Shown here in pieces: positions 11,278 to 61,668 of a stretch of 64,000 bases of DNA. The notes beneath the pieces were generated by a model. The model worked only from the letters and a program-made list of their open reading frames with translations. It did not search any database and was not told the origin of the DNA. The stretch is from Candidatus Krumholzibacteriota bacterium (GTDB lineage: Bacteria; Krumholzibacteriota; Krumholzibacteriia; LZORAL124-64-63). A program made the translations under genes and the position numbers. Within the stretch, counting starts at the first letter, position 1, and each line of letters starts with the position of its first letter. The stretch lies in contig JAKLEB010000002.1 in the NCBI GenBank assembly GCA_022711765.1, forward strand, positions 689,726-753,725. Direction: 5' to 3'.

Positions 11278-11382
11278 CGGCTCCGGTCGACCGGCTGGTT
11301 CGCGCGAGCCCCTTGTCTGCATCGCCTGGAAGCGGGATAATCCTGGTTGACTGACGCCCGCCAACCCATGAGGAGCGGTCCC

Positions 11383-20561: not shown

Positions 20562-20564
20562 CGT

Positions 20565-25596: not shown

Positions 25597-25772
25597 CACC
25601 TTCCTTTTCCACCGAGATCCGACCGAGTTGCCGGCACCGCCGCGCCGGTCTCCGGTCCGCACTCGTGAACCGATTCGCCATGCCAAGGAGGTGCCGATTC
25701 GCGCAATGACCCCGGCCTCTTCGTTGCGTCGTTCAATCCGAGATCCAGTTCATCGATCGAGGAGGATCGCCC

Positions 25773-28700: not shown

Positions 28701-29087
28701 GTCTGGCCGTCGGGCCTGGTGCAGGAGCTGCAGCAGGTGCCGGTGAACCAGCGGCTGGTCGTGCCGGAGCAGGCCGGTGCGTTGCCGGTCGGCGAGCTGC
28801 CGGTGCCGACTCTCCTGGAGGTTGTGAACTACCCGAACCCGTTCAACCCGAGCACGACGATCGAGTTCGCGCTGCCACGGGCTTCGCGCGTCGATCTGCA
28901 GATCCTCGATGCGCGCGGGAGGCTGGTGAGCGCGCTGCTCACCGGGGAACGCTACGCTGCGGGCCGGCATCAGGTGCAGTGGTTGGGGCGTAACGCCGAG
29001 GGCCAAACCGTGCCTTCGGGAGTGTATTTCTACCGGTGTGTCGCGAACGGGGAGTCCGTGACCGGAAGAATGGTGTTGTTGAAGTAA
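25773..29087 (+). CDS. CRTAC1-family secreted protein: N-terminal prenyltransferase/terpene-cyclase-like alpha-toroid repeats, FG-GAP/VCBS repeats, ASPIC/UnbV domain, C-terminal FlgD-Ig-like domain
   Basis: Signal peptide; repeated WGDYDNDGDLDLY... FG-GAP units; RFGVGAKIFVDNGEFTQLREVSASGNYLSQAPLTASYG (UnbV_ASPIC); C-terminus NYPNPFNPSTTIEFALP...GVYFYRC. GAGGAGGA RBS. Confidence 0.85.
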   Translation: MNHHTKITRLLLVLTVMVVISNLPAMAATEQVKRQAIDSGLVWLAVNQTRAGDEGYWPYENTGTLAATAAAALAFIEEGYLPGADVVINEVNYGDVVGYALNYMFNRALVDTRFGVEYAVYERYAEDYNNDGIYGEGNDQAIYFEPGDSNRRLYTTGICTPVVYALGVALGRDTVIGRGTAVVENMTYAEAMQDLIDWFSFAQVEPNLGNWRGGWRYDANYSSSDNSTAQWGALPLLYGISWGLGTPNYVFAELELWVNYIQNANGGSGYSYPWEYVNVSKTGGLLLQMRAIGRPLEHERVQAAINYINSYWNTYPSGTWYGNLNHPYAMWAVYKGLEIYGLTDVIMSFNHLVMIGTDMPAAPGGFTIGYEQDPSLSLAGDWYSHYSDYLVSIQNANGSWNGYDYWTGYLASAWYINILNAGGNIPPPGNPYIEMTSTFAGPCPWHGDPILHDVHYFYGTPGNPDPEVPPAEDVEVVVTLNEHMTFVAASGAGDYDPATHTVTWEVGQLPDGSEGFESVSCVIADTAPPDADLRTLADVSASNVPWYEWGHAETIVHTCATPVPDECVWQEWTDLAEHAVSHATAWGDYDNDGDQDLLIAGSGLNRLYENVGGVMVEVVGWCDDAEPSFGAVWGDYDSDGDLDLYVVNALVANALYRNEGGAFVRVDAGDAADTGDGYDAAWADVDNDGDLDLYLCNRDGTNHLYRNDGGAFVDWGGVTAVSGTSRGCAFADYDNDQDQDLYVSMLGANYLFRNDGGVYVDVSAPPVNDLGQGKGVAWGDYDNDGDLDLYLVNTGGANKLFRNDLPEFFTDVTDDLTGDANNGRACAWVDYDNDGWLDLFLTNISGWNRLFENIEGAFADSTCGALAVTADLPSWGCAFADYDADGDQDLAMAVASLADPSKLFRNDRYEVPIANWLQIDLRGVASNRFGVGAKIFVDNGEFTQLREVSASGNYLSQAPLTASYGVAAATRVDVTIVWPSGLVQELQQVPVNQRLVVPEQAGALPVGELPVPTLLEVVNYPNPFNPSTTIEFALPRASRVDLQILDARGRLVSALLTGERYAAGRHQVQWLGRNAEGQTVPSGVYFYRCVANGESVTGRMVLLK

Positions 29088-40654: not shown

Positions 40655-41629
40655 ATGACCACTCTCGAAATTCACGCCCGCGAGCACTTGCTCGCCCGCC
40701 GCGCGCAACTCGTCGACCTGACGCGGTCGCGTCGCGAAGAGAGCCTCATCGACCTGCTCCGGCGGGTCGACGCCGCTCTCGGCGCGCTGGACGTCGGCGA
40801 GTGGGGAAAATGCTCGGTGTGCCACGACCCGATCTCGCCCGCGCGGCTGGCGAACGATCCGCTGGTCACCGTCTGCCTGGAATGCCTCTCCGAGGACGAT
40901 CGCCGCGCGCTCGAGCGCGACCTCGAGGCGGCCGCGCGCGTGCAGCGAACGCTGCTGCCGGCGCCGCTCCTGCGCCGCGACGGCTGGGAGGTCGCGTTCG
41001 CCTGGGACCCCCACGGCGTGGTGTCCGGCGATCACGTGGATATCCTGCAGCCGCGCGGCGACGGAATGCCCCTGCACCTGCTGCTCGGCGACGTCGCCGG
41101 CAAGGGGGTGGCGGCGTCCTACCTTCAGTCGCACCTGCATGCCCTCGTCCGCGTCGTCGCCGCGGCCGAATGTTCGGTCGCCGAGCTGCTCGCGCGCACG
41201 AACCGCTTCTTCTGCGAGGCGACGCCGGCGGCCAACTACGCGACCCTGGTCGTGCTGAGGCTCCATCCCGACGGGCGGGTCGAATTCGGCAACGCCGGCC
41301 ACCCGCGGCCGCTGCTCGCCGATGCGCGGGGGGTGCGGCCGGTCGAGGGCGCCGGGGTGCCGCTCGGGCTCTTCTGCGAGTCGACCTACGAGGTCCGGGA
41401 CCTCCAGCTGAAGGCCGGTGAGACCCTGCTGCTCTACACCGACGGGTGGACGGAGCCGGAGCGCGACGGCAAGGAGTACGGAGCCGGCCGGGCGGCCGCC
41501 GTCCTGAGCCGCGCGCGGGACCTGCTCTTGCCGGACCTGATCGCCGCCTGCCGGGACGACCTCGCGGAGTTCCTGCGCGGCGTCCCGCGCGACGACGACC
41601 TGACCCTCCTCGCGGCTCGGCGGGTCTGA
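40655..41629 (+). CDS. DksA/TraR-type C4 zinc finger fused to PP2C/SpoIIE-family protein phosphatase domain
   Basis: CSVCHDPIS...CLEC zinc finger (res. 54-77), then LHLLLGDVAGKGVAASYL..., VVLRLHPDGRVEFGNAGHPRP, LYTDGWTEPE PP2C motifs. Confidence 0.75.
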   Translation: MTTLEIHAREHLLARRAQLVDLTRSRREESLIDLLRRVDAALGALDVGEWGKCSVCHDPISPARLANDPLVTVCLECLSEDDRRALERDLEAAARVQRTLLPAPLLRRDGWEVAFAWDPHGVVSGDHVDILQPRGDGMPLHLLLGDVAGKGVAASYLQSHLHALVRVVAAAECSVAELLARTNRFFCEATPAANYATLVVLRLHPDGRVEFGNAGHPRPLLADARGVRPVEGAGVPLGLFCESTYEVRDLQLKAGETLLLYTDGWTEPERDGKEYGAGRAAAVLSRARDLLLPDLIAACRDDLAEFLRGVPRDDDLTLLAARRV

Positions 41630-45788: not shown

Positions 45789-48146
45789 ATGCCCGTCGGC
45801 GCCCCACCGTCCAGCGGCCGCGAAGTCCGGGATCCGGTCTGCGGGATGACCACGACCGAGCCGTCCCGCTGGCTCGCGCAGGAGCACGCCGGCCGAATCC
45901 ACTATTTCTGCAGCGGCGGCTGCCGCGAGAGGTTCCTGCGCGACCCCGAGGCGTACGGGTCCGCGCCGGGGCACGATGCCGCCGGCCCCCGCGCGCCAGA
46001 GCCCGGACCCGCCGCTGCCGGGCGACTCTATACCTGTCCGATGCATCCCGAGGTGCGCCAGCTCGGGCCGGGGTCGTGCCCGAAGTGCGGGATGGCGCTC
46101 GAACCGGTCCTGGCCGAGTCCGACGACGAGGCCGCTGCGGACCCCGAGCTGCACGACTTCGCCCGGCGGTTGCGACTCGCCGCCGCGCTCACCCTGCCGC
46201 TGGTCCTGGTCGCCATGCGCCACATGCTCGGGCTCGGTTCGCTGGCGCACGCGTTGCCGGCGCGGGTGTGGCCCTGGCTCGAACTGCTCCTCGCGACGCC
46301 GGTCGTCGTGTGGGCCGGCTGGGTCCTGCACGCGCGGGCCTGGCGATCGCTGCGGCTCCGCAGCCCGAACATGTTCACGCTGATCGGGCTCGGGACCGGC
46401 GTGGCCTACGCGTACAGCGTGGCCGGCGTCGTCGCCCCCGGGGCGTTCCCCGCGTCGGCGCGCCTGGACGACGGCTCGGTCGGCCTGTACTTCGAGGCTG
46501 CCGCGGTGATCGTCACGCTGGTCCTCCTGGGCCAGGTGTTCGAGCTGCGCGCGCGCGGCCGCACGGGCGCCGCGATCCGGTCGCTATTGCAGCTCGCGCC
46601 GCGGACGGCGCGGCGGATCGGCGGGGACGGCACGGAGTCGGAGGTGGCGCTGTCCGCCATCCAGCCGGGCGATCGACTCCGCGTCCGTCCGGGCGAGAAG
46701 ATCCCGGTCGACGGGGTCGTCCTCGAGGGGAACAGCCGCGTCGACGAATCGATGCTCACGGGCGAACCGGCGCCGGTCGCGAAGTCGACGGCGGACCAGG
46801 TCACCGGCGGCACGGTGAACGGCTCCGGCTCCTTCGTGATGAGGGCGGACCGGGTCGGCGCCGACACCCTGCTCGCGCGGATCGTCCAGATGGTGGCGGA
46901 AGCGCAGCGCAGCCGGGCGCCGATCCAGCGGCTGGCCGACGCGGTGGCCGCGTGGTTCGTGCCGGCGGTGGTCGCGATCGCGGCCGCGGCGTTCGCGGCG
47001 TGGCTGATCTGGGGCCCGCAGCCGCGGCTCGCCCACGCGCTCGTCGCCGCGGTGTCCGTCCTGATCGTCGCCTGTCCGTGCGCGCTCGGCCTCGCGACGC
47101 CGATGTCGATCATGGTCGCCACCGGCCGCGGAGCCCTGGCGGGCGTGCTGTTCCGCAACGCCGAGGCGATCGAGAACCTCAGGCGCGTCGATACGATCGT
47201 CGTCGACAAGACCGGCACCCTCACCGAGGGCAAGCCGCGCCTGGCCGACGTGGTCGTCGCCGAAGGCTGGGACGCGGCCGAGGTGGTGAGCCTGGCGGCG
47301 GCGGTGGAGGTGGGGAGCGAGCACCCGCTCGCCGCCGCGGTCGTCGCCGGCGCGCGCGAGCGGAACGCCGGGCAGGCGGCGGCCGCCCGCGATTTCGCGT
47401 CGTACGCCGGCAAGGGAGTCACCGGCGAGGTCGGCGGGCGGACCGTCCTCGTGGGCACCGCGGACCTGCTCGCCGAGCACGGCGTCGACGGCGGCGCGCT
47501 CGCGTCGCGGGCCGAGGACCTGAGAGCCATGGCCAGCACGGTCGTCCACGTGGCCGTCGACGGCCGGCTCGCGGGTCTGCTCGCGATCGCCGACCCGATC
47601 AAGGCGAGCACGCCCGACGCGCTCGAGCGGCTGCGGGCCCTGGGACTGCGGATCGTGATGGTGACGGGCGACAGCGAGGCGACGGCGCGAGCGGTCGGGT
47701 CGAGGCTCGCGCTGTCGGACGTCGTCGCGGGGGTCCTGCCGGAGCAGAAGGCGGCGATGGTCGCGCGCCTACAGGGCGAGGGCCGCATCGTCGCGATGGC
47801 CGGCGACGGGATCAACGATGCGCCCGCGCTGGCGCGCGCCGACGTGGGGATCGCGATGGGAACGGGGACCGACGTGGCGATCCAGAGCGCTCCGGTGACG
47901 CTCGTGCGGGGAGACCTGCGAGCGATCGCGCGCGCGTACGCACTCAGCCGGGCGACCATGCGCAACATCCGCGAGAACCTCTTCTTCGCGTTCGTCTACA
48001 ACGCGCTCGGCGTACCCGTGGCGGCTGGGGTCCTGTACCCGGCCTTCGGGATCCTGCTGTCGCCGATGATCGCGGCGGCAGCCATGAGTTTCAGCTCCGT
48101 TTCGGTCGTCGCCAACGCCCTGCGGCTGCGCCGCGTCCGGCTGTGA
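45789..48146 (+). CDS. copA: copper-translocating P1B-type ATPase with N-terminal YHS/TRASH-type metal-binding domains
   Basis: DPVCGM...YFCSGGC (YHS), YTCPMHPEV...CPKCGM, CPC transmembrane motif ([12 protein letters not shown]), DKTGTLT phosphorylation site, [10 protein letters not shown]. Confidence 0.85.
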
Positions 48147-49402: not shown

Positions 49403-50113
49403 ATGCAGATCGGCGTCCGTGAGGCTGCCCGCCTCCTGACCGTTTCCGAGAAGACGATCTACCGGTGGATCAAGGACGGCCGGCTGCCCGCCTACCTGAT
49501 CAACGAGCAGTACCGCTTCAACAAGGCGGAGCTGCTCGAATGGGCCACGGGCCGCAAGATCAACGTGTCGCCCCAGATCTTCGAGGAGCCGCCGGACGCC
49601 GACCGCGTGACGCTCCCCGCGGTCAGCGAGGCGCTCGAGGCCGGTGGCATCCACTATCGCGTCGCCGGCAAGGACACGTCCGCGGTGCTGATGGCGATCG
49701 TGGAATTGATGCGGCTGCCCGACGAGGTCGACCGGACCTTTCTGCACCAGGTCCTGCTCGCCCGGGAGTCGCTCGGCTCGACCGGCGTGGGCGACGGCAT
49801 CGCGATCCCGCACGTTCGCAATCCGATCGTCCTGCACGTCCCGCGGCCGACGGTGACGCTCTGTTTCCTGGAGCGGCCGATCGATTTCGGCGCGATCGAC
49901 GGCAAGCCGGTCAGCACGCTGTTCACGATCGTGAGCCCGGCGGTCCGGGCGCACCTGCATATCCTCTCGCGCCTCGTCTTCATCCTGCGCGACCTGACGC
50001 TGCGCGACCAGCTCGCCCGTCAGGCCTCCCGCGACGAGATCCTGGCCACGGTGCGCCGGGCCGAGGCGAGGGCGGTCACGGAGCCGCCGGCGGCGCCGCG
50101 GGAGGCGCCGTGA
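49403..50113 (+). CDS. putative regulator: N-terminal HTH_17 (excisionase/MerR-type) DNA-binding domain fused to PTS EIIA(Ntr)-type (PTS_EIIA_2) domain
   Basis: LTVSEKTIYRWIKDGRLPAYLINEQYRFNKAELLEWA (HTH), then EIIA-2 fold with active-site His in GDGIAIPHVRNP. Stop overlaps the GTG start of the next gene (GTGA). Confidence 0.75.
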   Translation: MQIGVREAARLLTVSEKTIYRWIKDGRLPAYLINEQYRFNKAELLEWATGRKINVSPQIFEEPPDADRVTLPAVSEALEAGGIHYRVAGKDTSAVLMAIVELMRLPDEVDRTFLHQVLLARESLGSTGVGDGIAIPHVRNPIVLHVPRPTVTLCFLERPIDFGAIDGKPVSTLFTIVSPAVRAHLHILSRLVFILRDLTLRDQLARQASRDEILATVRRAEARAVTEPPAAPREAP

Positions 50114-52083
50114 TCCTGCTGATCGCGTCGCTCGCCCTGCTGCTCGGCGGCGGCGCCGCGGCGCTGGCCGCGTCACGCCGGGATCGGCTGAGGAACGGGA
50201 TCGTGCTCGGCAGCCTGGTCGGCGCCTCGCTCGCGTCGCTGCCCGTGGCCATCGTGACGATCGCGCGCGGCGAATCGCTGGCGCTGCAGTGGCCGTGGAG
50301 CGTACCGCTGGGGTCGTTCGCCCTGGGCCTGGATCCGCTGTCCGCCTTCTTCCTCCTGCCGATCCTGGTGCTGGCACCGCTCGCGGGGATCTACGGCGTC
50401 GGTTACCTGCGCGCGTGGCAGGGCCGCAAGAATCTGGGCGCCTCGTGGTTCTTCTTCAACGTCCTGGTCGCCTGCATGATGCTGGTGGTCGTGGCGCGCA
50501 ACGCCGTGCTCTTCCTGGTCGCCTGGGAGGCCATGGCGCTCGCGTCGTACGCGCTGGTGGTGTTCGAGGACGAGCGAGGCGACGTGCGCGGCGCCGGCCG
50601 CACCTATCTCGTCGCGACGCACCTCGGGACGGGCGCCCTCTTCGTGCTCTTCGTCCTGCTGGGCCAGCCCGCGGGCTCGCTCGACTTCGCCGACCTGGGC
50701 GCCGGCGCGGGATCGCTGTCGCTCCTCTTCGCGCTGGCCGTGATTGGTTTCGGCACCAAGGCCGGGTTCATGCCGCTGCACGTCTGGTTGCCGGAGGCCC
50801 ACCCCGCGTCGCCGAGCCACGTCTCGGCGCTGATGTCCGGCGTGATGATCAAGACCGGCATCTACGGGCTGCTGCGCATCCTCATGGTCCTCGGGGCGCC
50901 GCCGCCGGCCTGGGGCTGGACGATGGTCGCGATCGGCGCGACCTCCGGCGTGCTCGGCGTGCTCTTCGCGCTGGCCCAGCACGACGTCAAGCGGCTGCTC
51001 GCCTATCACAGCGTCGAGAACATCGGCATCATCGCGCTCGGGCTCGGCGTGGGCCTGCTGGGCCGAAGCTACGACCAGCCGGCGATGGCGTACCTCGGGT
51101 TCGCCGGGGCGCTGCTCCACGTCGCGAACCACGCGCTGTTCAAGGGGCTGCTCTTCCTGGGCGCCGGCGCCGTCGCGCACGCCACGCACACGCGCGAGAT
51201 CGATCACCTGGGCGGCCTGCTGAAGCGGATGCCCTGGACCGGAACGACCTTCCTGGCCGGCTCCGCGGCGATCAGCGGGCTGCCGCCGTTCAACGGTTTC
51301 GTGAGCGAGTTCCTCATCTTCCTGGGCGCGCTGACCGGCGCCGTCACGCTCGGCGGCGCCGGCGCCGCGGTCGGGGCGGTCACGACGGGCGCGCTCGGCC
51401 TGATCGGCGGCCTGGCGGCCGCGTGCTTCGCGAAGGCCTTCGGCATCATGTTCCTCGGCGAGCCGCGCAGCCGTCACGCGGCGGATGCGACCGAGGTGGG
51501 CCGGTCGCTGCGCGTGCCGCTCGTCGTGCTGGCCGCGGCGTGCCTCGCGATCGGCCTCGGCGCTCCGTTCGTGGTCGCCGGCCTGGACAGCGTCGTCGTC
51601 GCGGCCGCCGGGTTGCCGCCGCACGACCCGGCCGGCCGAGCGCTGGCGGGACCGCCGCTGCGCATGGTCGCGCTCGGCAGCGCCGTCCTCCTCGCGCTGG
51701 TCGGCGCGCTCGTCCTGGCTCGCCGGGGTCTGCTGGCGAGACGGACCATCACGACCGCCCTGACCTGGGATTGCGGTTACGCGGCGCCCGATCGGCGGAT
51801 GCAGTACACCGCCGCCGGCTTCGCCCAGCCGCTGACCAGCCTGTTCCGGTTCGCCCTTCGGACGCGGCGCGAGGGCGAGCCCGTGCGGGGTCTGTTCCCG
51901 GCGCGAGCGTCGCTCGCGACCTCGACCCCGGATCCGATGCACCGCGAGATCTACGAGCCGGTCTTCGCGGCGGTCGGCCGGCTGTTCGCGAAACGGCGGT
52001 GGGTGCAGGGCGGTCAGACGCAGCTCTACGTCCTGTACATCGTCCTGACGCTCCTGGTGCTCCTCGTCTGGGAGCTCTCGTGA
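50110..52083 (+). CDS. HyfB/HycC/NuoL-like proton-conducting antiporter-type membrane subunit
   Basis: 657 aa polytopic; PF00361-type core (WLPEAHPASPSHVSALMSGVMIKTGIYGLLR...). Translationally coupled at both ends. Confidence 0.8.
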   Translation: MILLIASLALLLGGGAAALAASRRDRLRNGIVLGSLVGASLASLPVAIVTIARGESLALQWPWSVPLGSFALGLDPLSAFFLLPILVLAPLAGIYGVGYLRAWQGRKNLGASWFFFNVLVACMMLVVVARNAVLFLVAWEAMALASYALVVFEDERGDVRGAGRTYLVATHLGTGALFVLFVLLGQPAGSLDFADLGAGAGSLSLLFALAVIGFGTKAGFMPLHVWLPEAHPASPSHVSALMSGVMIKTGIYGLLRILMVLGAPPPAWGWTMVAIGATSGVLGVLFALAQHDVKRLLAYHSVENIGIIALGLGVGLLGRSYDQPAMAYLGFAGALLHVANHALFKGLLFLGAGAVAHATHTREIDHLGGLLKRMPWTGTTFLAGSAAISGLPPFNGFVSEFLIFLGALTGAVTLGGAGAAVGAVTTGALGLIGGLAAACFAKAFGIMFLGEPRSRHAADATEVGRSLRVPLVVLAAACLAIGLGAPFVVAGLDSVVVAAAGLPPHDPAGRALAGPPLRMVALGSAVLLALVGALVLARRGLLARRTITTALTWDCGYAAPDRRMQYTAAGFAQPLTSLFRFALRTRREGEPVRGLFPARASLATSTPDPMHREIYEPVFAAVGRLFAKRRWVQGGQTQLYVLYIVLTLLVLLVWELS

Positions 52084-52085
52084 TC

Positions 52086-53000
52086 ATGGCCATCGCCGCC
52101 GTCATCCACCTGCTGGTCGCGCTGCTCCTGGCGCCGCTGCTGCTCGGCGTCATCAACCGGACCAAGGCCGTCTTCGCCGGACGGCGAGGGCAGCCGCTGC
52201 TGCAGCTCTACGCCGACCTCGCCAAGCTCCTGCGCAAGGGAGCCGTCTACAGCGGCACGACGACCTGGGTGTTCCGGGCGGGACCGCTCGTGACCCTGGC
52301 GGCGGTCACCGTGTCCCTGCTCGTCGTGCCGTTCGCCGGCGTGCGCGCCGTGGGGGCCTTCCCGGGCGACTTCGTGCTCTTTGCCTACCTGCTCGCCGTC
52401 GCCCGCTTCTTCACCGTGATCGCCGCGCTCGACACCGGTTCGAGTTTCGAGGGGATGGGCGCGAGCCGCGAGGTCGCCTTCTCCGCGCTGGCCGAGCCCG
52501 CCCTCCTCGTCGGGCTCGCGGCCCTGGCCAGGCGCGCCGGCGGCGCGTCTCTGTCGGACTGCTACGAGGCGGTGCGGCTCTTCGACTTCGGACCGAACGG
52601 CGGCTTGCCGCTGCTCTTGATCGGCGCAGCCTTCTTCGTCGTCTTCCTGGCGGAGAACGCGCGGATCCCGTTCGACGATCCGAACACGCACCTCGAATTG
52701 ACGATGATCCACGAGGTGATGGTCCTGGACCACGGCGGGCCGGACCTCGCGTTCGTGCAGTACGCGGCGGCGCTGAAGCTGTGGGTGCTCGGCGCCCTGG
52801 TGGTGGGAATCCTGCTGCCGCTGCGCACCGGCTTCGTCGCCCTCGACTTCGGGTTCGGCCTGGCCGCCATGGCGGTGCTGGCCGTGGCGACGGGTTGTGT
52901 CGAATCGACGAAGGCCAGGGTGCGCCTGACGGGGGTGCCCCAGTTGCTGGTGGCCGCGACGGTCCTGGCCGGAGTCGGCTTCGGGCTGACGCTGCGGTAG
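52086..53000 (+). CDS. HyfC/HycD/NuoH-like membrane subunit
   Basis: MAIAAVIHLLVALLLAPLLLGVINRTKAVFAGRRGQPLLQLYADLAKLL closely parallels the HycD/NuoH N-terminus; 304 aa. Confidence 0.8.
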   Translation: MAIAAVIHLLVALLLAPLLLGVINRTKAVFAGRRGQPLLQLYADLAKLLRKGAVYSGTTTWVFRAGPLVTLAAVTVSLLVVPFAGVRAVGAFPGDFVLFAYLLAVARFFTVIAALDTGSSFEGMGASREVAFSALAEPALLVGLAALARRAGGASLSDCYEAVRLFDFGPNGGLPLLLIGAAFFVVFLAENARIPFDDPNTHLELTMIHEVMVLDHGGPDLAFVQYAAALKLWVLGALVVGILLPLRTGFVALDFGFGLAAMAVLAVATGCVESTKARVRLTGVPQLLVAATVLAGVGFGLTLR

Positions 53001-53026: not shown

Positions 53027-53680
53027 ATGGCGGAGATGAACGACTGGATCGACGCGGCGATCGCGCTCGTCGTGCTCGGCAACCTGAGCTTGCTCGGGAC
53101 GAGCCGCCTCGTCGCCTGCATCCGGATCCTGGCGCTGCAGGGCCTCTTGCTGGGCCTGCTTCCCCTCTTCTTCCACGCGGACGACCTCACCCTGCGGGTC
53201 GTCCTCCAGGTCACCGCGAGCACGATCAGCAAGGGCATCGTCTTCCCCTGGCTGCTGACCCGCGCGGTGCGCGGCGCGGACGAGCGGCGCGAGGTCGCGC
53301 CCGTGGTCGGCTACACGCCGTCGCTGTTGATCGGCGGCGCGCTGCTCGGCCTCGCGCTGTGGCTGGGCGGGCGCCTGCCGCTGCCCGGCGACGCCGAATC
53401 GGAATTCCTGGTCGCGGTCGCGCTGAACACGACGATGGTCGGTCTCTTCCTCATCATCGCGCGGCGGATGGCGATCACCCAGGTGCTCGGCTACCTCGCA
53501 ATGGAGAACGGAATCACCACCTTCGGCCTGGTCTTCGCCGAGCGGGAACCGCTCCTGGTGGAGATGGGCATCTTCCTCGACGCGTTCATGGCGGTCTTCG
53601 TCATGGGCCTGATGGTCTACAACATCAACCGGGAGTTCCGTCACCTCGACACCGAACGGCTGTCGAACCTGACGGACTGA
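53027..53680 (+). CDS. HyfE-like small membrane subunit
   Basis: 217 aa, multiple TM helices, position and size equivalent to HyfE; GGGAGG RBS. Confidence 0.6.
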   Translation: MAEMNDWIDAAIALVVLGNLSLLGTSRLVACIRILALQGLLLGLLPLFFHADDLTLRVVLQVTASTISKGIVFPWLLTRAVRGADERREVAPVVGYTPSLLIGGALLGLALWLGGRLPLPGDAESEFLVAVALNTTMVGLFLIIARRMAITQVLGYLAMENGITTFGLVFAEREPLLVEMGIFLDAFMAVFVMGLMVYNINREFRHLDTERLSNLTD

Positions 53681-53695: not shown

Positions 53696-55159
53696 ATGAT
53701 CGTCGCCCTCGTCCTGTTGCCCCTCACGGCCGGCGCGCTGGCGTTCTTCCTGCGCAGCGACGGGCTGCGCCGCGGTCTGCTGGTCGCGACCGCGCTCGCC
53801 CACTCCGGGCTCACGGTCGCGGCGTGGCTGCGGCGGCCGCTGGCCGAGCTGGGCGGCTGGCTGGAACTGGACGACCTCGAGCTGCTCATCCTGGCGGTCA
53901 CCAGCCTGCTCTTCCTGGTCGCGGCCGTCTACGCGGTGGGCTATCTGCGCCGCGAGGGCCGGGACCAGCGGGAGGACTACACGGAGGGTTTCCTCTTCGT
54001 CAACGCGCCGGAGGCCACCTTCACTGGCTGTCTGCTGCTCTTCCTCGGCGCCATGACCCTGGTCATCGGCGCGCAGCACTTCGGCCTGATGTGGGTCGCC
54101 GTCGAGGGCACCACGCTGGCGAGCGCGCCCCTCATCCACTTCCACCGCCATCATCGGTCCCTCGAGGCCGCCTGGAAGTACCTCGTCATCTGTTCGGTCG
54201 GCATCGCGATCGCCCTGCTGGGGAACTTCTTCCTCGTGGTGGCGACCTCCGCGCTGGACGACCAGCTCGGCGGCCTGACCGTGCGGGCCCTGGCCGAACA
54301 CGCCGGCCAGCTCGATCCCACCTGGCTGCGCGCGGCGTTCCTTCTCCTGCTCGTCGGCTACGGCACCAAGATGGGCCTCGCGCCCCTGCACACGTGGCTT
54401 CCCGACGCGCACAGCGAGGCGCCGTCGGTGGTCTCGGCGCTGCTCTCGGGTGCGCTGCTGAACTGCGCGTTCCTGGCGATCCTGCGCCTGCACGGCGTGT
54501 GCGTGGCCGCGGGTCAGGCGGCGTTCAGCGCGAACCTCCTGGTGGGTTTCGGCCTGGTCTCGATGGGCTTCGCCGCGGTCTTCATCGTCGGCCAGCGCGA
54601 CTACAAGCGGATGCTGGCGTACTCCAGCGTCGAGCACATGGGCATTGCCGCCCTCGGCGTGGGGCTCGGCGGCGCCGCGGGCTTCGGCGCGCTGCTCCAC
54701 GTGGTGAACCACTCGTTGACCAAGGGCATGCTGTTCCTGATCGCGGGCAACGTACTCGCGGCGTACCGCACGCGCTCCTCCGCGGAGGTCACCGGCCTGT
54801 TGCGCGCGCTGCCCGCCAGCGGCTTGCTGTGGCTGGCGGGGTTCCTCGCGGTCACCGGGTCGCCGCCGTTCGGACCGTTCCTGAGCGAGTTCACGATCCT
54901 GCGCGGCGGATTGGCGGCGCAGCGACCGGTCATCGCGGTCGTCTACCTCGTGCTCCTGTTGCTGGTGTTCGTCGGCATGGCGATGATCGTGCCCGGCATG
55001 GCCCATGGGGAGACGAACGTCGCCCGGCGGCGGGAGCCGTGGCTGGCCGTCGTGCCGCCGGCCTGCCTGGGGATCGGCGTGCTGATCCTCGGCGTCTACG
55101 TGCCCCGTCCCCTCGCCGACGCCATCACCCGCGCTCTGGGCGCCCTGGGGCTGTCATGA
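53696..55159 (+). CDS. HyfF/NuoM/NuoN-like proton-conducting membrane subunit
   Basis: 487 aa; PF00361 core (GTKMGLAPLHTWLPDAHSEAPSVVSALLSG...). Confidence 0.8.
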   Translation: MIVALVLLPLTAGALAFFLRSDGLRRGLLVATALAHSGLTVAAWLRRPLAELGGWLELDDLELLILAVTSLLFLVAAVYAVGYLRREGRDQREDYTEGFLFVNAPEATFTGCLLLFLGAMTLVIGAQHFGLMWVAVEGTTLASAPLIHFHRHHRSLEAAWKYLVICSVGIAIALLGNFFLVVATSALDDQLGGLTVRALAEHAGQLDPTWLRAAFLLLLVGYGTKMGLAPLHTWLPDAHSEAPSVVSALLSGALLNCAFLAILRLHGVCVAAGQAAFSANLLVGFGLVSMGFAAVFIVGQRDYKRMLAYSSVEHMGIAALGVGLGGAAGFGALLHVVNHSLTKGMLFLIAGNVLAAYRTRSSAEVTGLLRALPASGLLWLAGFLAVTGSPPFGPFLSEFTILRGGLAAQRPVIAVVYLVLLLLVFVGMAMIVPGMAHGETNVARRREPWLAVVPPACLGIGVLILGVYVPRPLADAITRALGALGLS

Positions 55160-56607
55160 GTGCGCATTTGGGCAACGGCGAATCGATCGCCCTTGGTGAC
55201 CTTCCCGTCCTGTCCGTGGCGGCGCTGCGCGACGAGGTGATCGGCGGCGTCGCGCGCGGCCGGCGGCTGGCGGCGTACTTCGGCGCGGGCCGGCGGGGCG
55301 ACGCGCTGCGCGTGGTCGCCGTCGTCGCGGGGGACGACGACGGCGAGTTGCTCGCGTGCGCGGCCGACGTTTCCGGCAGCTACGACGCGCTGACGCCCGA
55401 CTGCCCCCAGGCGCACTGGTTCGAGCGCGAGCTGGCCGAGCAGTGGGGTGTCGAGCCGCGCGGCCACCCGTGGCTCAAACCGATCCGCCGCATCCCGGAC
55501 GCGTTCTTCCGCGTCGACGGCGAGGAGGTCCACGAGGTCGCCGTGGGCCCGGTCCATGCCGGCGTCATCGAACCCGGCCACTTCCGTTTCCAGTGCCACG
55601 GCGAGGAGGTGCTGCATCTCGAGATCGCGCTCGGGTACCAGCACCGCGGCGTCGAGCGCGCGCTCGTCGGTGGACCCGACCGGCGCACGCTGGCGTACAT
55701 GGAGACCCTCGCCGGCGACACCACCATCGGGCACGCCCTGGCCCACGCGCTCGTCAGGGAAGCGCTCGGCGGCGGCGGCGCGCCGCCCCGCGCCCTGGCG
55801 ATCGCCGGCATCGCCCTCGAGCTCGAGCGCCTCGCCAACCACATCGGCGACCTGGGCGCTCTCGCCGGCGACGTCGGGTTCCTTCCGACCGCCGCCTACT
55901 GCGGGCGCATCCGCGGCGACGTGCTCAACGCCACCGCCCAGCTCTGCGGCAACCGCTTCGGCCGCGGTCTCGTGCGCCCCTACGGCCTCGACCACGACGT
56001 CGACGACGCCTTGCGCGAGGATCTCCAGCGCCGGCTCGCCGCCGCCCGCCAGGACTTCGCGGTCGCCGATCGCCTGCTCTGGGACTCCCCGTCGGTGATG
56101 GCCCGATTCGAGGGCACCGGCCTGCTCTCCCTGGACGTGTGCGACGAGATCGGACTCGTCGGCCCCGCCGCCCGCGCCTGCGGCGCCGAGCGCGACGTTC
56201 GCCAGAACCACCCCCACGGCATCTACCGCTTCGTCCACATCCCGATCTGCACCTGGCCGACGGGCGACGTCTTCGGGCGCGCTCACGTCCGCTCGATCGA
56301 GGTCCAGCGGTCGTTCGCCTTCATCCAGGAGCTGCTCGACAGCCTGCCGGGCGGACCGGTCGCGCTGGAGCGCCCGGCGCCGCCGGCGGCCGACCGACTC
56401 GCCGTGGCCCTCGTCGAAGGCTGGCGCGGCGAGATCTGCCACGTCGCGCTCACGGGCGCCGATGGGCGCTTCGCGCGCTACAAGGTCGTCGACCCCTCGT
56501 TCCACAACTGGTTCGGGCTGGCGCTCGCGATGCGCGGTCAGCAGATCTCCGACTTCCCGCTCTGCAACAAGAGCTTCAATCTCAGCTACTGCGGACACGA
56601 CCTATGA
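55156..56607 (+). CDS. NuoC/NuoD-like fused 'large subunit' (HycE/HyfG homologue) lacking the canonical [NiFe]-binding cysteine motifs
   Basis: GPVHAGVIEPGHFRFQCHGEEVLHLEIALGYQHRGVE (NuoD/HycE signature). The L1 motif RxCGxCxxxH is replaced by TLAGDTTIGH, and the C-terminus LCNKSFNLSYCGHDL replaces DPCxxCxxH. ATGA coupling on both sides. Confidence 0.75.
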   Translation: MSAHLGNGESIALGDLPVLSVAALRDEVIGGVARGRRLAAYFGAGRRGDALRVVAVVAGDDDGELLACAADVSGSYDALTPDCPQAHWFERELAEQWGVEPRGHPWLKPIRRIPDAFFRVDGEEVHEVAVGPVHAGVIEPGHFRFQCHGEEVLHLEIALGYQHRGVERALVGGPDRRTLAYMETLAGDTTIGHALAHALVREALGGGGAPPRALAIAGIALELERLANHIGDLGALAGDVGFLPTAAYCGRIRGDVLNATAQLCGNRFGRGLVRPYGLDHDVDDALREDLQRRLAAARQDFAVADRLLWDSPSVMARFEGTGLLSLDVCDEIGLVGPAARACGAERDVRQNHPHGIYRFVHIPICTWPTGDVFGRAHVRSIEVQRSFAFIQELLDSLPGGPVALERPAPPAADRLAVALVEGWRGEICHVALTGADGRFARYKVVDPSFHNWFGLALAMRGQQISDFPLCNKSFNLSYCGHDL

Positions 56608-57380
56608 TCAAGACGACCCTGGCGAGGCTCCAGCAGAAACACCGGACGACCCGGTACCCGGACGGTCCGCCGCCGTCGTTGCCGGATCGCTACCGCGGCC
56701 GGCCGGTCATCGCGGCCGGCGCCTGCCCCGAGGGATGCCGGCAGTGCGCGGACGAATGTCCGACCGGCGCGATCACGCTCGAGGGGAGCGTGGGCCTGGA
56801 CCTCGGGAAGTGCCTGTTCTGCGCGAGGTGCGAGGCGGTCTGCCCGGCGCAGGCGATCCGGTTCGGCCGCGACCATCAGCTCGCCGCGAGCCGGCGCGAG
56901 GACCTGGTGCTCGGCCCCGAGGGCGCCCGCCTCGCGGTCGAGCTGAGCGACCGGCTGCGACGCCTGTTGGGCCGATCCCTGAAGCTGCGCGTGGTGAGCG
57001 CGGGGGGCTGCAACGCTTGCGAGGCCGACACGAACGTCCTGTCGACCGTCGGCTGGGATCTCGGCCGGTTCGGCATCCAGTTCGTCGCGTCGCCGCGCCA
57101 CGCCGACGGGCTCCTGATCACCGGACCGGTGACCGCGGCCATGCGCCCGGCTCTGCGCAAGACGTGGGAGGCGGTGCCCGAGCCCAAGATCGTGATCGCC
57201 GTCGGCGCGTGTGCGATCAGCGGCGGCCCCTTCCTCGGCCATGCCGAGCAGCACGACGGCGCCGCGTCGACGGTGCCGGTCGACCTCCACATCCCGGGCT
57301 GTCCGCCCCACCCGCTGACCATCCTGGACGGCCTGCTCCGGCTGCTCGGCCGGATCCCGGAACCGGAGGCCGGCGGCTGA
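56604..57380 (+). CDS. fused NuoI-like 2x[4Fe-4S] ferredoxin and NuoB/hydrogenase small-subunit-like protein
   Basis: CPEGCRQCADECP and CLFCARCEAVCP (ferredoxin half), then GGCNACEAD...SPRHADGLLITGPVT...VGACAISGGPF...PGCPP (small-subunit cluster-binding cysteines conserved). Confidence 0.75.
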   Translation: MIKTTLARLQQKHRTTRYPDGPPPSLPDRYRGRPVIAAGACPEGCRQCADECPTGAITLEGSVGLDLGKCLFCARCEAVCPAQAIRFGRDHQLAASRREDLVLGPEGARLAVELSDRLRRLLGRSLKLRVVSAGGCNACEADTNVLSTVGWDLGRFGIQFVASPRHADGLLITGPVTAAMRPALRKTWEAVPEPKIVIAVGACAISGGPFLGHAEQHDGAASTVPVDLHIPGCPPHPLTILDGLLRLLGRIPEPEAGG

Positions 57381-58531: not shown

Positions 58532-59923
58532 TCACTTCACGTACGCGAGGCGACAGGTCGCCGGACCCGCCGGGCGATCGACCCGGGCGACGTACGCGCC
58601 GGTCGCGAGCGGCCGCCCCCGGGCGTCGGCCGCATCCCAGTCCACCGTCCCGCGGCCGTCCCGCAGAGGCATCACGAGCGTGTCCACGCGGCGGCCGCGC
58701 AGATCGTAGATCACCGCCTCGGCGTTCGCCCCGACGCCGGGCGCCTCGAGCGCGAGGGTCGTCCGCCCGTTGAACGGGTTCGGACTCGCCGTCAGCCTGG
58801 CGGCCGGCGGCGCAACGGCCGAAGGGACCGCCGTCACGCCGGCGAGGCCGGCCACCGTGGCGGTCGCCGTCACGGCCACCCGCACGTTCCGCGTGGTGAA
58901 GGTCGGGTCGAGGTAGATCACGAGGTCGCCCGTCGTGTGGTAGCGGGGATTGAAGTCGGGGTCGCCCCAGTCCCAGGCTTCCTCGTGGTTGACGGCCGCA
59001 TACCCCTCCTGCCAGAACGAGTAGAAGTCGCCCCACCAGATGTCCTCGGCCTCGTGGAGGACGAAGGGCATGTCGGCGTAGGTGGTCGCCGCGTCGACGA
59101 CCGCGGCCGCGAGGCACTGCGAATGCGCGTTGGTCTCGATCTCGAGGTCGAACGGCACGCCGGGCTCCCACCACCCGACCATGTCGAAGTTCAGGGCGCC
59201 GAGGATGGCGGCGCCCTGCGACGCCTGCAGCTGGACCCACGCGCGGCTGCCGCGCAGGCCCTGCTCCTCGCCGCCGAAGAGCGCGTACTGGACGGTATAG
59301 CCCAGCTGGTGGCCGGCCAGCAGCCGGGCGCAAGTCAGCACCGCGATCGCGCCGCTCGCATTGTCGTCGGCGCCGGGAGTCGCGACCTCCGGCGCCTCGC
59401 TCGTGGCGTCGTAGTGCGCGCAGACCACCACGATCGAATCGGGCTGGACCTCGCCCACCTGGGTGGCGATGACGTTGGGCACGACGATCCCGGAGATCGT
59501 GAAGTCGTGCTGCTCGGTCGCGAGGCCCAGAGCCGCGAACCTGGCCTCGAGCTGGTCGGCCACGACGTGGATGTTCGCGTTCAGGCTGTGACGGACGCCG
59601 AGCCCCACGAGCCACTCGAGGTCGGCCTGGAGATCGCCCCAGACCACCTGGTCGGCGAGGTTCTGCACGCGCGGATCGGGGTCGCGCAGCGGGGTCCAGG
59701 CGCGCGCCGCGGCGCGCGGCGCGGGCACCGGTGCCGGCCGGGCGCCGGGCCACCGGTCGACGAGCTCGGCCGGACCCTCCACCAGCCAGAGGTCGCCGCG
59801 CCGGTCGAGGACGCGGACGCCCGGCGGAGCCGCGGGCGAGGGGACGACGAAGCGGATGTCGTCCGCCAGGGCCGCGGTCGCGACGGCGGTCAGGCAGAGC
59901 ATGGCGGCGATCGAGCGGGGCAT
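58532..59923 (-). CDS. M28-family zinc aminopeptidase with C-terminal FlgD-Ig-like domain, secreted
   Basis: Signal peptide; CAHYDATS, GADDNASG, LFGGEEQGLRGS M28 metal/catalytic motifs; C-terminus ASPNPFNGRTTLALEAP...GAYVARV. Confidence 0.8.
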   Translation of the reverse strand: MPRSIAAMLCLTAVATAALADDIRFVVPSPAAPPGVRVLDRRGDLWLVEGPAELVDRWPGARPAPVPAPRAAARAWTPLRDPDPRVQNLADQVVWGDLQADLEWLVGLGVRHSLNANIHVVADQLEARFAALGLATEQHDFTISGIVVPNVIATQVGEVQPDSIVVVCAHYDATSEAPEVATPGADDNASGAIAVLTCARLLAGHQLGYTVQYALFGGEEQGLRGSRAWVQLQASQGAAILGALNFDMVGWWEPGVPFDLEIETNAHSQCLAAAVVDAATTYADMPFVLHEAEDIWWGDFYSFWQEGYAAVNHEEAWDWGDPDFNPRYHTTGDLVIYLDPTFTTRNVRVAVTATATVAGLAGVTAVPSAVAPPAARLTASPNPFNGRTTLALEAPGVGANAEAVIYDLRGRRVDTLVMPLRDGRGTVDWDAADARGRPLATGAYVARVDRPAGPATCRLAYVK

Positions 59924-60069: not shown

Positions 60070-61668
60070 ATGACTAGCAAGATCCTGATCGCCGCGTGCG
60101 TTCTCTCGCTCCACCTCGCCTCGATCGCCGAGGCCCGCTTCATCATGTTCGACGCCCACTTCGACAATCGCGCCGTCGGCTCGAGCCTCGACCGGCGAGG
60201 CGCCCGTTTCGGCGAGCCGATCGAGGCGGACGGCGACAACCACAGCGAGGTCGTCGTCCAGGACGGCCCCGGCGACCGCTCCGTGCAGATCTGGGACACG
60301 ACCAGCACCGGCAGCGACGAGCTCACCTTCGCCCTGGTCGACGGCCGGGAGGTCGTTGACGGCAAGCTCAACATCTCGCTCGAACTGCAGCTCGACTCGG
60401 TCGACGTCTACAAGGTCGCGATCGAGGGGCCGAATCCCAACGCCATGTGGTTCTTCGACCTCACCCTCGACGCCGCCGGCATCATGTACCTGTCCGACGC
60501 CGACGATTTCCCGCTGGCCGCGTTCGACACCTATGCCGCGGGCGACCTGCTCCTGATCGAGTTGAGCTTCAACCTGAACAACGGGACCTACGATTTCACC
60601 CTCAACGGCGTCCCCGTCCTCACCAACGAGACCCACGGCCTGACGGCCTACGGCCCGGCGCTCATCGTGGTCGGCAACCAGTCCGACGGCAACGCCACCG
60701 GCTCGGTCCGGCTGGACAACCTGTCGGTCGACTGGGCGCCGGGCACCGCCGACGAGCTGCTGACGGCGAATTTCAACGACGAGCCGATCGGCCAGCCCAT
60801 CGGCACCGGCGGCGCGGCGCTCGGCCAGCCGATCGAATATTCCGGCTGCACGCCGACCGTCGAGAACGGCGGCTTCGCCACGCCCGCGCTGCTGATCCAG
60901 GACGAGTCCACGACCACCACGTCGCGCGTGCGATTCGGGTTCCTGAACGACATCGAGGCGACCGGCGATCTCTCGATCTCGTTCCGGCTGTACTTCGAAT
61001 CCCTGGAATCCTACTTCGTCTACCTCCGCGAGGAGGGCACGAGCGCGGCCCAGTTCCTCACCCTCAAATTCACCCCGACAGGCGACGTGCTGTTCGACGA
61101 CGAGACCAGCGCCGGCACGCACTACCACACCGAGTCGTACGTCGCGCAGCAGCCGATCCACGTCGAGCTGGCCTACTACGCGGCTCTCGGCGTGTACAGC
61201 GTCTGGATGGACGGCGAGCGCGTGGTGCACCGCCGCGAGCACGGGGTCGCGGGCCGCGGCATCGGCGGGATCCTCTTCGGCGCGTCCTTCGATGGCAATG
61301 TCGACGGCCAGATGCGGGTGGACGCGATCAACGTCGACGCCCTGGACGGCACGTTGACCCCGGTCCGGGAGGATGACGCGCCCGCGCTCTTGCCGGCCAC
61401 GTTCCGGGCGGCGCCCAACCCGTTCAATCCGGCGACGGCGCTGCGCTTCACGCTGCCGCAGGCGGGTCGGGTCCAGCTCGACATCGTCGATCTGCGCGGC
61501 CGCCGCGTGCGGCAGCTCGTGAGCGAGGCGCTCGCGGCGGGCGAGCACGCGGTCACCTGGCAGGGGACCGATGAGGCCGGGTGCCCGGCGGCCTCCGGCG
61601 TGTACCAGGCGCTGCTGCGTGTCGACGGTCGCCTCCGCGAGCGCGTGCCGCTCACGCTGGTGAAGTAG
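60070..61668 (+). CDS. secreted hypothetical protein (two beta-sandwich-like regions) with C-terminal FlgD-Ig-like domain
   Basis: Signal peptide MTSKILIAACVLSLHLASIAEA; C-terminus AAPNPFNPATALRFTLP...GVYQALL. Confidence 0.65.
   Translation: MTSKILIAACVLSLHLASIAEARFIMFDAHFDNRAVGSSLDRRGARFGEPIEADGDNHSEVVVQDGPGDRSVQIWDTTSTGSDELTFALVDGREVVDGKLNISLELQLDSVDVYKVAIEGPNPNAMWFFDLTLDAAGIMYLSDADDFPLAAFDTYAAGDLLLIELSFNLNNGTYDFTLNGVPVLTNETHGLTAYGPALIVVGNQSDGNATGSVRLDNLSVDWAPGTADELLTANFNDEPIGQPIGTGGAALGQPIEYSGCTPTVENGGFATPALLIQDESTTTTSRVRFGFLNDIEATGDLSISFRLYFESLESYFVYLREEGTSAAQFLTLKFTPTGDVLFDDETSAGTHYHTESYVAQQPIHVELAYYAALGVYSVWMDGERVVHRREHGVAGRGIGGILFGASFDGNVDGQMRVDAINVDALDGTLTPVREDDAPALLPATFRAAPNPFNPATALRFTLPQAGRVQLDIVDLRGRRVRQLVSEALAAGEHAVTWQGTDEAGCPAASGVYQALLRVDGRLRERVPLTLVK

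Follow-up and report, generated by a model that had tools for sequence, protein, structure and literature searches.

The gene at 56604..57380 on the + strand of the 64-kb stretch of DNA analysed here (the window) is very probably ehrS of Candidatus Krumholzibacteria, encoding the small subunit of a six-subunit Ehr complex (EhrA-B-C-D-L-S) and acting as the electron wire proposed below; nothing contradicts the assignment as EhrS, and the mechanism is weakly constrained. Its 258-aa product joins a NuoI/HycF-like module, a linker and a NuoB/HycG-like module in a single polypeptide, as a sequence-only reading of the window had claimed. That reading also implied that the fusion was new, which does not hold: a fused small subunit is already known, is a described hallmark of Ehr complexes, and represents their standard architecture rather than a peculiarity of this genome. 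Both domains had been assigned by automatic annotation, and the exact protein was already in GenBank (100% identity to a protein from a Candidatus Krumholzibacteria MAG). As a discovery the fusion therefore carries little weight; it is useful as a pointer to Ehr function.

Ehr denotes the energy-converting (Ech-) hydrogenase-related complex. According to papers that quote these two sources, the complex was named in Geobacter (Coppi 2005) and the family was defined by Marreiros et al. (2013). A 2019 study of Margulisbacteria, citing Marreiros 2013, states that in Ehr complexes the gene for NuoB includes a NuoI homologue and that for NuoD a NuoC homologue, accompanied by HyfB, HyfF, NuoH and HyfE (PMC6349859, Supplementary Note 4). 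The window has this content: NuoL/HyfB-, NuoH/HyfC-, HyfE- and NuoN/HyfF-like genes, then the large subunit and the small subunit, in this order, with Fer4 and Oxidored_q6 in one ORF and Complex1_30kDa and Complex1_49kDa together in ehrL. The Geobacter sulfurreducens genes ehrA-D, L and S are GSU0739-0743 and GSU0745, and the ehrABCDLS names are also in use for Methylacidiphilum. Ehr is found in hundreds of species of many phyla, among them nitrifiers, methanotrophs, Geobacter and many uncultured lineages.

All six ehr genes of the window lie on the + strand. ehrA (50110..52083, GTG start) encodes a 657-aa HyfB/NuoL-like antiporter-type subunit (Pfam Proton_antipo_M; NCBIfam hydrogenase 4 subunit B, 630 bits), ehrB (52086..53000) a 304-aa HyfC/NuoH-like membrane subunit (Pfam NADHdh, PF00146), ehrC (53027..53680) a HyfE-like small membrane subunit of 217 aa counted from the ATG at 53027 (an alternative ATG lies at 53036), and ehrD (53696..55159) a 487-aa HyfF/NuoN-like antiporter-type membrane subunit (Pfam Proton_antipo_M; NCBIfam hydrogenase 4 subunit F profiles). 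The 483-aa NuoC-NuoD/HycE-like large subunit is encoded by ehrL (55156..56607; Pfam Complex1_30kDa and Complex1_49kDa), whose stop codon overlaps the start of ehrS in an ATGA at 56604-56607. ehrS itself runs unbroken from ATG to TGA. It is co-transcribed with ehrL, whose NiFe ligands are all gone, and is probably translationally coupled to it.

The domain check suggested by the earlier reading (PF12838 plus PF01058) gave both domains: Fer4_7 (PF12838) and Fer4 (PF00037) hit EhrS residues 41-87, each above its cut-off, and Oxidored_q6 (PF01058) hits residues 136-246 (E 4.5e-27, 94.8 bits, cut-off 27). Among NCBIfam profiles, residues 7-102 correspond to positions 7-107 of the 180-position formate-hydrogenlyase Fe-S subunit profile (1.9e-18), and residues 135-252 match NuoB-family profiles (5.8e-32). 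Sequence comparison with the PDB gave E. coli formate hydrogenlyase (FHL) subunits as the nearest solved relatives of both halves: EhrS 15-102 aligns with HycF residues 15-107 (7z0s_F, 2.6e-14), and EhrS 118-252 aligns with HycG residues 30-164 (7z0s_G, 5e-30) and also with MbhJ (6cfw_J). We therefore divide the protein into a NuoI/HycF-type 2x[4Fe-4S] module (residues 1-102, 56604..56909), including an N-terminal NuoI-like segment that matches from profile position 3-7; a linker of about 15 residues (103-117, 56910..56954), being the stretch left uncovered between the HycF and HycG alignments; and a NuoB/HycG/MbhJ-type core (118-252, 56955..57359), supported by Pfam, NCBIfam, PDB alignments and Foldseek.

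All 12 cluster cysteines are present. The ferredoxin module was said to carry two CxxCxxCxxxCP motifs; its eight cysteines stand, each aligning with a HycF cysteine, and motif 2 (C70, C73, C76, C80; nt 56811-56846; C70LFC73ARC76EAVC80P) is canonical, but it is the only one of the two that is. Motif 1 (C41, C45, C48, C52; nt 56724-56762) reads C41-x3-C45-x2-C48-x3-C52-P (CPEGCRQCADECP), one residue longer than that of HycF; of 81 relatives in which the motif could be recognised, 70 share this Cx3C spacing. From its sequence we assume that the motif-1 cluster is occupied despite this spacing. The claim that the small-subunit half retains its four cluster ligands is borne out, with C136 and C139 in GGCNAC, C203 in GACAISGG and C233 in PGCPP all aligning with the HycG and MbhJ ligands. 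Apart from motif 1, the ferredoxin half departs from the NuoI/HycF type in lacking the C-terminal third of HycF (about 73 residues), and HycG has about 29 more N-terminal and about 90 more C-terminal residues than the EhrS core.

An AlphaFold2 model of EhrS (mean pLDDT 81.9, pTM 0.81) has pLDDT 87-91 over residues 31-100 and its lowest values, 57-72, in the linker, which is variable in sequence and length and poorly conserved across relatives, with conserved residues on both flanks. Foldseek searches of the PDB with the model returned 7z0s_G, 6cfw_J and complex I PSST/NuoB (rmsd 1.8-2.5 Å over about 130 columns, target TM 0.72-0.84), and no chain spanning both modules was found there (query TM at most 0.49); there is no solved structure of a fused homologue. 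All solved relatives have the modules on two different chains, as in Hyc, Mbh and complex I, in agreement with the earlier statement that HyfH/HycF and HyfI/HycG are separate proteins in Hyf/Hyc systems.

The partner subunit sets the complex apart from hydrogenases. The closest PDB relative of EhrL is HycE (7z0s_E), which binds NiFe and makes H2 with electrons from FdhF via HycB; in the alignment the HycE ligands C241, C244, C531 and C534 are replaced in EhrL by Ala, Thr, Ser and Gly, with AGDT instead of CGIC at L1 and LSYCG instead of PCYSC at L2. The large subunit thus has no NiFe site, as had been proposed, and the cysteines are also replaced in 47 orthologues, which show T..GD....H at L1. 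EhrS has the four-cysteine CxxC...C...CPP signature of group 4 [NiFe]-hydrogenase small subunits, but it is not filed as a hydrogenase subunit, because EhrL lacks the NiFe cysteines of L1 and L2. Nor is it a complex I NuoB. Respiratory and photosynthetic complex I share with EhrS the folds of NuoI (TYKY/NdhI) and NuoB (PSST/NdhK) and the N6a-N6b-N2 chain, and likewise have a large-subunit homologue without a NiFe site; unlike in EhrS, these subunits are separate, and N2 of Nqo6/PSST is bound by a tandem Cys-Cys (GLACCA) where EhrS has CxxC (GGCNAC). NuoD carries His and Tyr quinone ligands (H38 and Y87 of Nqo4); EhrL has Ile and Gly at these positions (alignment with 2fug_4), so quinone reduction, if any, would need a different site. 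A third comparison is with Pyrococcus furiosus MBH (6CFW; MbhN and MbhJ) and MBS, the former MBX (6U8Y), which like Ehr have a minimal peripheral arm and no dedicated dehydrogenase module, and differ in having separate subunits and an Mrp-type membrane arm. In MBH and MBS the NuoI-like subunit receives its electrons straight from ferredoxin, and the NiFe-less large subunit of MBS is still catalytic and ion-pumping, with polysulfide as substrate.

EhrS supplies in one chain what HycF+HycG, MbhN+MbhJ and NuoI+NuoB supply in two, the HycF-like part ending near HycF residue 107 and the HycG-like part setting in near HycG residue 30, and it keeps the ligands for three [4Fe-4S] clusters. Judged from the solved homologues, C41/C45/C48+C80 would hold the distal entry cluster (N6a equivalent), C70/C73/C76+C52 the middle cluster (N6b equivalent) and C136/C139/C203/C233 the proximal cluster facing EhrL (N2 equivalent), making EhrS a complete single-chain three-cluster electron wire. 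Clustering of all ORFs of at least 100 aa within ±10 kb in 80 genome loci revealed no conserved electron-donor gene near the ehr cluster; the only recurring ORFs were the ehr genes, a regulator described below and antisense shadow ORFs, and the Gfo/Idh/MocA gene downstream in the window is not conserved. With no conserved donor module (Fdh, HycB, NuoEFG) adjoining the cluster, a soluble carrier is the most likely partner. MBH, Ech and photosynthetic NDH-1 have a low-potential carrier such as ferredoxin docking on their NuoI-like module; the same may hold here, and by this analogy ferredoxin is probably the electron donor. At its other end the wire would exchange electrons with a non-NiFe site where EhrL, EhrS and EhrB meet, for which a membrane quinone is the leading candidate, and EhrA, EhrB, EhrC and EhrD would use the reaction to translocate ions. 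The organism uses quinones, since a cytochrome bd quinol oxidase is encoded in the same window. Of the earlier proposal that the proximal cluster passes electrons to a non-NiFe acceptor, the intact ligands and the NiFe-less EhrL hold, and the inferred transfer to such a site is reasonable and fits the Ehr literature. Biochemical work on an Ehr complex did not turn up in literature searches. Because it has only six subunits and a single 258-aa polypeptide holds its entire electron-transfer chain, Ehr is an attractive minimal model that could show how redox chemistry is coupled to ion pumping in complex-I-type machines.

The wire might also run the other way, with the membrane potential driving electrons from quinol, or another membrane donor, via EhrS up to ferredoxin. 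This is possible but, in our judgement, unlikely: the complex-I quinone-site residues are absent from EhrL, there is no direct evidence for this direction, and the window alone does not reveal the metabolism of Krumholzibacteria. What gives the idea its appeal is the occurrence of Ehr in aerobes and nitrifiers (comammox Nitrospira, ammonia-oxidising archaea and Methylacidiphilum), in which fermentative disposal of ferredoxin is unneeded, together with the quinol oxidase of the window. Nitrospira requires reduced ferredoxin for its reductive TCA cycle, and enzymes of the Ech and complex I types can in principle run in either direction.

A different departure from the preferred reading concerns the far end of the wire. 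Six other EhrL cysteines are conserved to at least 96% in the 47 orthologues (in the motifs RFQC, CGRxRGD, CGxRFGR, ExCH, FPxCNKSF and LSYCG), one of them within the old L2 motif and one beside a conserved active-site His, which raises the thought that in this clade the NiFe ligands were replaced by a different redox site and not merely lost. In that case the EhrS wire could serve a new catalytic centre built on a metal, an Fe-S cluster or a disulfide. We hold this to be very improbable, the reading being weakened because three distant Ehr large subunits, paired with the same fused small subunit, lack most of the six cysteines; a universal new metal site built from these clade-invariant residues loses ground for the same reason.

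Conservation bears on the proposal that Ehr is a decaying, non-functional hydrogenase relic whose fused subunit has no redox role. A 2026 paper reads mutations of Geobacter ehrA-2 and ehrB in this way, taking Ehr as non-functional, and the catalytic metal site is indeed gone from EhrL. We nevertheless find the proposal very hard to sustain. Full-length fused EhrS occurs in at least 523 species-representative genomes, close as well as distant relatives, so the search of public genomes called for by the sequence-only reading succeeded, and the absence from close relatives that would have spoken against a genuine fusion was not seen. The best 80 of these relatives, from Planctomycetota, Verrucomicrobiota, Desulfobacterota, Acidobacteriota, Spirochaetota, Lentisphaerota and other phyla, are 60-73% identical to EhrS over residues 1 to about 250. 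Taken one by one, the 12 cysteines are conserved in 89-100% of 104 sequences, and within the close clade just two members deviate; the three-cluster wire is intact under strong purifying selection. The order ehrA-B-C-D-L-S, with ehrS last, is found in most of the 80 genome loci, and the upstream ehr genes are almost always there when a locus extends far enough to include them; the overlapping start and stop codons are conserved along with this six-gene synteny. More distant fused relatives, at 37-43% identity, belong to a six-gene cluster of the same make-up, and their large subunits lack the NiFe ligands too. Finally, all Ehr subunits were detected as proteins in G. sulfurreducens and are regulated, being more abundant in formate-grown cells.

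Could EhrS instead serve a true H2-evolving group 4 [NiFe]-hydrogenase, of the Hyf/FHL-2 kind, with non-canonical metal ligands? Its affinities lean that way: hydrogenase 4 subunits B and F are the best NCBIfam matches of the membrane subunits, HycE, HycF and HycG are the nearest PDB relatives, the proximal cluster has hydrogenase-type CxxC ligation instead of the complex-I CC, and some Ehr-type clusters (D. ruminis) are reported to keep the four cysteines. The substitutions in EhrL, in its 47 orthologues and in the distant clusters make a hydrogenase scarcely credible, all the more as the examined parts of the window showed neither hyp maturation genes nor a formate dehydrogenase and the literature classes Ehr-type complexes as non-hydrogenases.

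That a frameshift or assembly artefact merged a hyfH-like and a hyfI-like gene, a caveat raised earlier about a window that comes from one assembly, has nothing in its favour and is rejected with near certainty, since the ORF is continuous, the identical protein is found on 6 contigs from several sources, hundreds of independent assemblies encode the same full-length protein (including the isolates Geomonas anaerohicana and Desulforhabdus sp. TSK), conserved residues flank the linker, and no separate HyfH-like gene occurs in the ehr clusters of the 80 genome loci.

Geobacter Ehr (GSU0739-0743, GSU0745) and the window cluster agree in the six genes, their order, the NiFe-less NuoC-NuoD large subunit and the NuoB+NuoI gene. 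For Geobacteraceae relatives other than G. sulfurreducens GSU0745, proteins from six loci of Geobacteraceae, Geobacter sp. and Geomonas (L031, L054, L056, L057, L073, L074) are 61-63% identical to EhrS over the full length. Ehr synteny is present in L056, L073 and L074, and the sizes in Geomonas L074 (658/304/213/477/503 aa plus the fusion) follow the order and sizes of the window; in L031 and L054 ehrS lies apart from the other ehr genes, and L057 has only an ehrL fragment about 2 kb upstream. Two differences, neither of them substantive, can be named. The window has a single ehrA; a second NuoL-like gene is found in Geobacter and many other loci. The window ehrA is also preceded by a putative regulator gene (49403..50113, +; Pfam HTH_17 DNA-binding domain and PTS EIIA-2 domain with a GIAIPH histidine motif), whose stop codon overlaps the ehrA start (GTGA); Geobacteraceae loci lack it, and 47 of the 80 genome loci have a homologue immediately before ehrA. 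EhrC, which has orthologues in 59 loci, shows a weak Oxidored_q2 (NuoK-like) match at its C-terminus.

The ehrS gene is an unbroken ORF of 258 residues (56604-57380, +), the final gene of a co-directional cluster whose members are closely spaced or overlapping. Upstream of it lie ehrA (50110-52083, +; HyfB/NuoL-like), ehrB (52086-53000, +; NuoH-like), ehrC (53027-53680, +; HyfE-like, with a weak NuoK match), ehrD (53696-55159, +; HyfF/NuoN-like) and ehrL (55156-56607, +; NuoC+NuoD-like), and the end of a convergent Gfo/Idh/MocA gene lies 14 bp 3' of ehrS. The ehrS ATG shares ATGA (56604-56607) with the TGA of ehrL, a pattern typical of translational coupling.

Pfam places 4Fe-4S dicluster domains on EhrS residues 41-87 and Oxidored_q6 (PF01058) on residues 136-246 (E 4.5e-27), all above curated cut-offs; NCBIfam aligns positions 7-107 (of 180) of the formate-hydrogenlyase Fe-S subunit profile with residues 7-102, and NuoB-family profiles with residues 135-252. 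Among PDB sequences, EhrS residues 15-102 align with residues 15-107 of HycF (7z0s_F, from E. coli formate hydrogenlyase) and also with MbhN of Pyrococcus furiosus MBH, and residues 118-252 with residues 30-164 of HycG (7z0s_G, 5e-30) and also with MbhJ (6cfw_J). By the alignments to HycF and HycG, EhrS is therefore HycF up to about residue 107, a linker of ~15 residues and the core of HycG; the final third of HycF has no counterpart in it, and the extensions at either end of HycG are likewise missing. The unbroken ORF and these profile and PDB alignments confirm the sequence-only reading of a NuoI-type ferredoxin and a NuoB-type small subunit fused in one polypeptide. Both modules are separate chains in every solved relative. 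AlphaFold2, run with 57 homologues, gave a confident model (mean pLDDT 81.9, pTM 0.81; lowest in the linker); HycG, MbhJ and PSST can be superposed on its C-terminal half at 1.8-2.5 Å, and a structure search with the model returned no PDB chain spanning both halves.

The gene is almost certainly the EhrS of an Ehr (Ech- or energy-converting hydrogenase-related) complex, and the fused EhrS is an ordinary, already known member of a described family. The complex got its name in Geobacter sulfurreducens, where ehrA-D, L and S are GSU0739-0743 and GSU0745 and all Ehr subunits are more abundant in formate-grown cells. Citing papers credit Marreiros et al. 2013 with generalising Ehr, and the supplement of Matheus Carnevali et al. 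2019 (PMC6349859) states that the Ehr NuoB gene also encodes a NuoI homologue and the NuoD gene a NuoC homologue, the remaining subunits being HyfB, HyfF, NuoH and HyfE, a composition exactly like that of the window cluster. Ehr has been reported in comammox Nitrospira, ammonia-oxidising archaea and Methylacidiphilum (as ehrABCDLS), in papers that all call its function unknown.

A GenBank protein from a Candidatus Krumholzibacteria MAG, present on six contigs, is 100% identical to EhrS. The best 120 database clusters (250-280 aa) have 66-85% identity to it, and nearly all of them carry the two Pfam domains; both halves already bear names in JGI annotation. When one genome per species was scanned, relatives were found in at least 523 genomes; the best 80 of these have 60-73% identity over residues 1 to ~250 and belong to Planctomycetota, Verrucomicrobiota, Lentisphaerota, Kiritimatiellia, Acidobacteriota, Desulfobacterota, Geobacteraceae, Spirochaetota, Latescibacterota and Eisenbacteria, with the isolates Geomonas anaerohicana, Desulforhabdus sp. 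TSK and Desulfobacterium sp. N47 among them. Tblastn and ORF clustering placed ehrA-B-C-D-L 5' of the fused gene in nearly all sufficiently long loci, and found no separate HyfH-like gene in the relatives' loci. When 1.8 billion cluster representatives were searched exhaustively without a profile, full-length fused relatives turned up down to ~35% identity; three at 37-43% sit either within the same six-gene cluster or immediately 3' of a large-subunit gene, and their paired large subunits also lack NiFe ligands. This spread disposes of both objections that had been attached to the fusion: a frameshift artefact is ruled out by the same full-length fusion across many genomes, isolates included, and a local peculiarity by its presence in close and distant relatives alike.

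Other arrangements also occur. In about a tenth of genomes a fused ehrS-like gene stands apart from other ehr genes (relatives' loci L030, L031, L051, L052, L054, L055, L058, L059 and L084), and in L033 and L065 ehrL and ehrS stand ~4 kb apart, with unrelated genes in between; these may be second copies or split operons. The orphan copies of L030 and L051 are near putative 2-oxoacid:ferredoxin oxidoreductase genes (judged by eye from N-terminal sequences), and that of L084 is 4 kb from NuoE/NuoF/[FeFe]-hydrogenase genes. Many relatives (e.g. L013, L018, L023, L029, L050) have ~2 kb of additional sequence between ehrA and ehrB, which would fit a second gene of NuoL type (ehrA-2 in Geobacter), whereas the window cluster has a single ehrA.

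Ligand sets for three [4Fe-4S] clusters are present on the one EhrS chain, ordered as in the NuoI-NuoB or HycF-HycG pair. The small-subunit motifs retain all four ligands, as had been claimed: C136 and C139 (GGCNAC), C203 (GACAISGG) and C233 (PGCPP) match the proximal-cluster ligands of HycG and MbhJ in alignment, with the hydrogenase-type CxxC spacing where N2 of complex I has a tandem CC. Each of the eight ferredoxin cysteines has an aligned counterpart in HycF, but of the two CxxCxxCxxxCP motifs first described, one needs correction: the first motif is C41-x3-C45-x2-C48-x3-C52-P, one residue longer than in HycF, and this Cx3C spacing is shared by 70 of the 81 relatives with a recognisable motif. 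Each of the twelve cysteines is retained in 89-100% of 104 sequences, a set taking in representatives at 35-50% identity, and a single Cys substitution occurs in only two sequences of the close clade. Six distant representatives (P0161, P0180, P0221, P0229, P0260, P0132) jointly lack the predicted distal-cluster ligands C41/C45/C48+C80 and keep C52+C70/73/76 and the NuoB-type set; three other distant fused relatives (P0153, P0168, P0246) lack all four NuoB-type cysteines. Judged from sequence, cluster loss among distant fused relatives is a coherent pattern, and the window EhrS sits in the fully equipped majority.

The closest PDB relative of EhrL is HycE (7z0s_E). In the alignments, EhrL has Ala, Thr, Ser and Gly at the positions of the HycE NiFe ligands C241, C244, C531 and C534, bearing out the claim of a large subunit without a NiFe site, and Ile and Gly at those of the complex-I quinone ligands Nqo4 His38 and Tyr87. 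Six non-NiFe cysteines are at least 96% conserved in 47 EhrL orthologues of the window clade (contexts RFQC, CGRxRGD, CGxRFGR, ExCH, FPxCNKSF and LSYCG, the last falling within the former L2 motif). This conservation could, with low probability, reflect a redox site that took over from the NiFe centre; most of the six are missing from three distant Ehr large subunits (loci L081, L082, L085), which have the same kind of fused partner. A C-terminal ...GHDL end is common to all EhrL compared, these three included.

EhrS is encoded beside a NuoCD-like subunit that lacks NiFe ligands and four complex-I/Mrp-type membrane subunits. By the ligation rule of ferredoxin folds and the structures of complex I, FHL and MBH, C41/C45/C48 with C80 would hold a distal, N6a-like entry cluster, C70/C73/C76 with C52 a middle, N6b-like cluster, and C136/C139/C203/C233 a proximal, N2-like cluster towards EhrL. 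A 2026 paper takes the complex to be non-functional; that sequence, synteny and all twelve cysteines are conserved across phyla speaks against this. EhrS is probably a redox wire of three clusters within a working oxidoreductase that translocates ions. ORF clustering of the relatives' loci found no conserved dehydrogenase module near the ehr cluster, so a soluble carrier, most likely ferredoxin, is the probable partner of this wire, and may dock on the NuoI-like face, in the manner known from MBH, Ech and photosynthetic NDH-1. At its opposite end the wire would connect to a non-NiFe site where EhrL, EhrS and EhrB meet; electron transfer to such a site had been proposed in the sequence-only reading, reasonably, but is not new for a member of a described family. 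Quinone would be the leading candidate acceptor there: a cytochrome bd is encoded in the window, but the canonical complex-I quinone ligands are absent from EhrL, and a ferredoxin-to-quinone reaction is offered tentatively. Either ferredoxin oxidation would build an ion gradient, or the gradient would drive ferredoxin reduction.

A regulator gene with HTH_17 and PTS EIIA-2 domains (49403-50113, +) precedes the cluster, its stop overlapping the ehrA GTG (GTGA), and carries the phosphorylatable-His motif GIAIPH in its EIIA-2 domain. We found no mention of it in the Ehr literature consulted; a homologue lies directly 5' of ehrA in 47 of the 80 loci, from many phyla but not Geobacteraceae, and it looks like a conserved seventh gene of the Ehr cluster, which would couple expression of Ehr to a phosphorylation signal of the PTS(Ntr) type.

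Elsewhere in the window, cytochrome bd oxidase subunit I (19215-20564, -; E 9e-164) lies ~2 kb from the gene for a ~700-aa protein with Fer4_5 and several 4Fe-4S dicluster domains (22748-24841, -), a NapH/NosR-type membrane polyferredoxin; the pair shows that the organism has a respiratory chain dependent on quinones. Large secreted proteins at 11341-13047 (+), 25710-29087 (+), 58532-59923 (-) and 60070-61668 (+), with FG-GAP/ASPIC repeats, an M28 peptidase and one of unknown function among them, share a FlgD-Ig/Por_Secre_tail-like C-terminal domain, which suggests a common T9SS-type sorting/secretion signal in this Krumholzibacteria genome. Also encoded are a SpoIIE/PP2C phosphatase with an N-terminal DksA/TraR C4 zinc finger (40655-41629, +) and a CopA-type P-type ATPase with both YHS and HMBD metal-binding domains (45789-48146, +).
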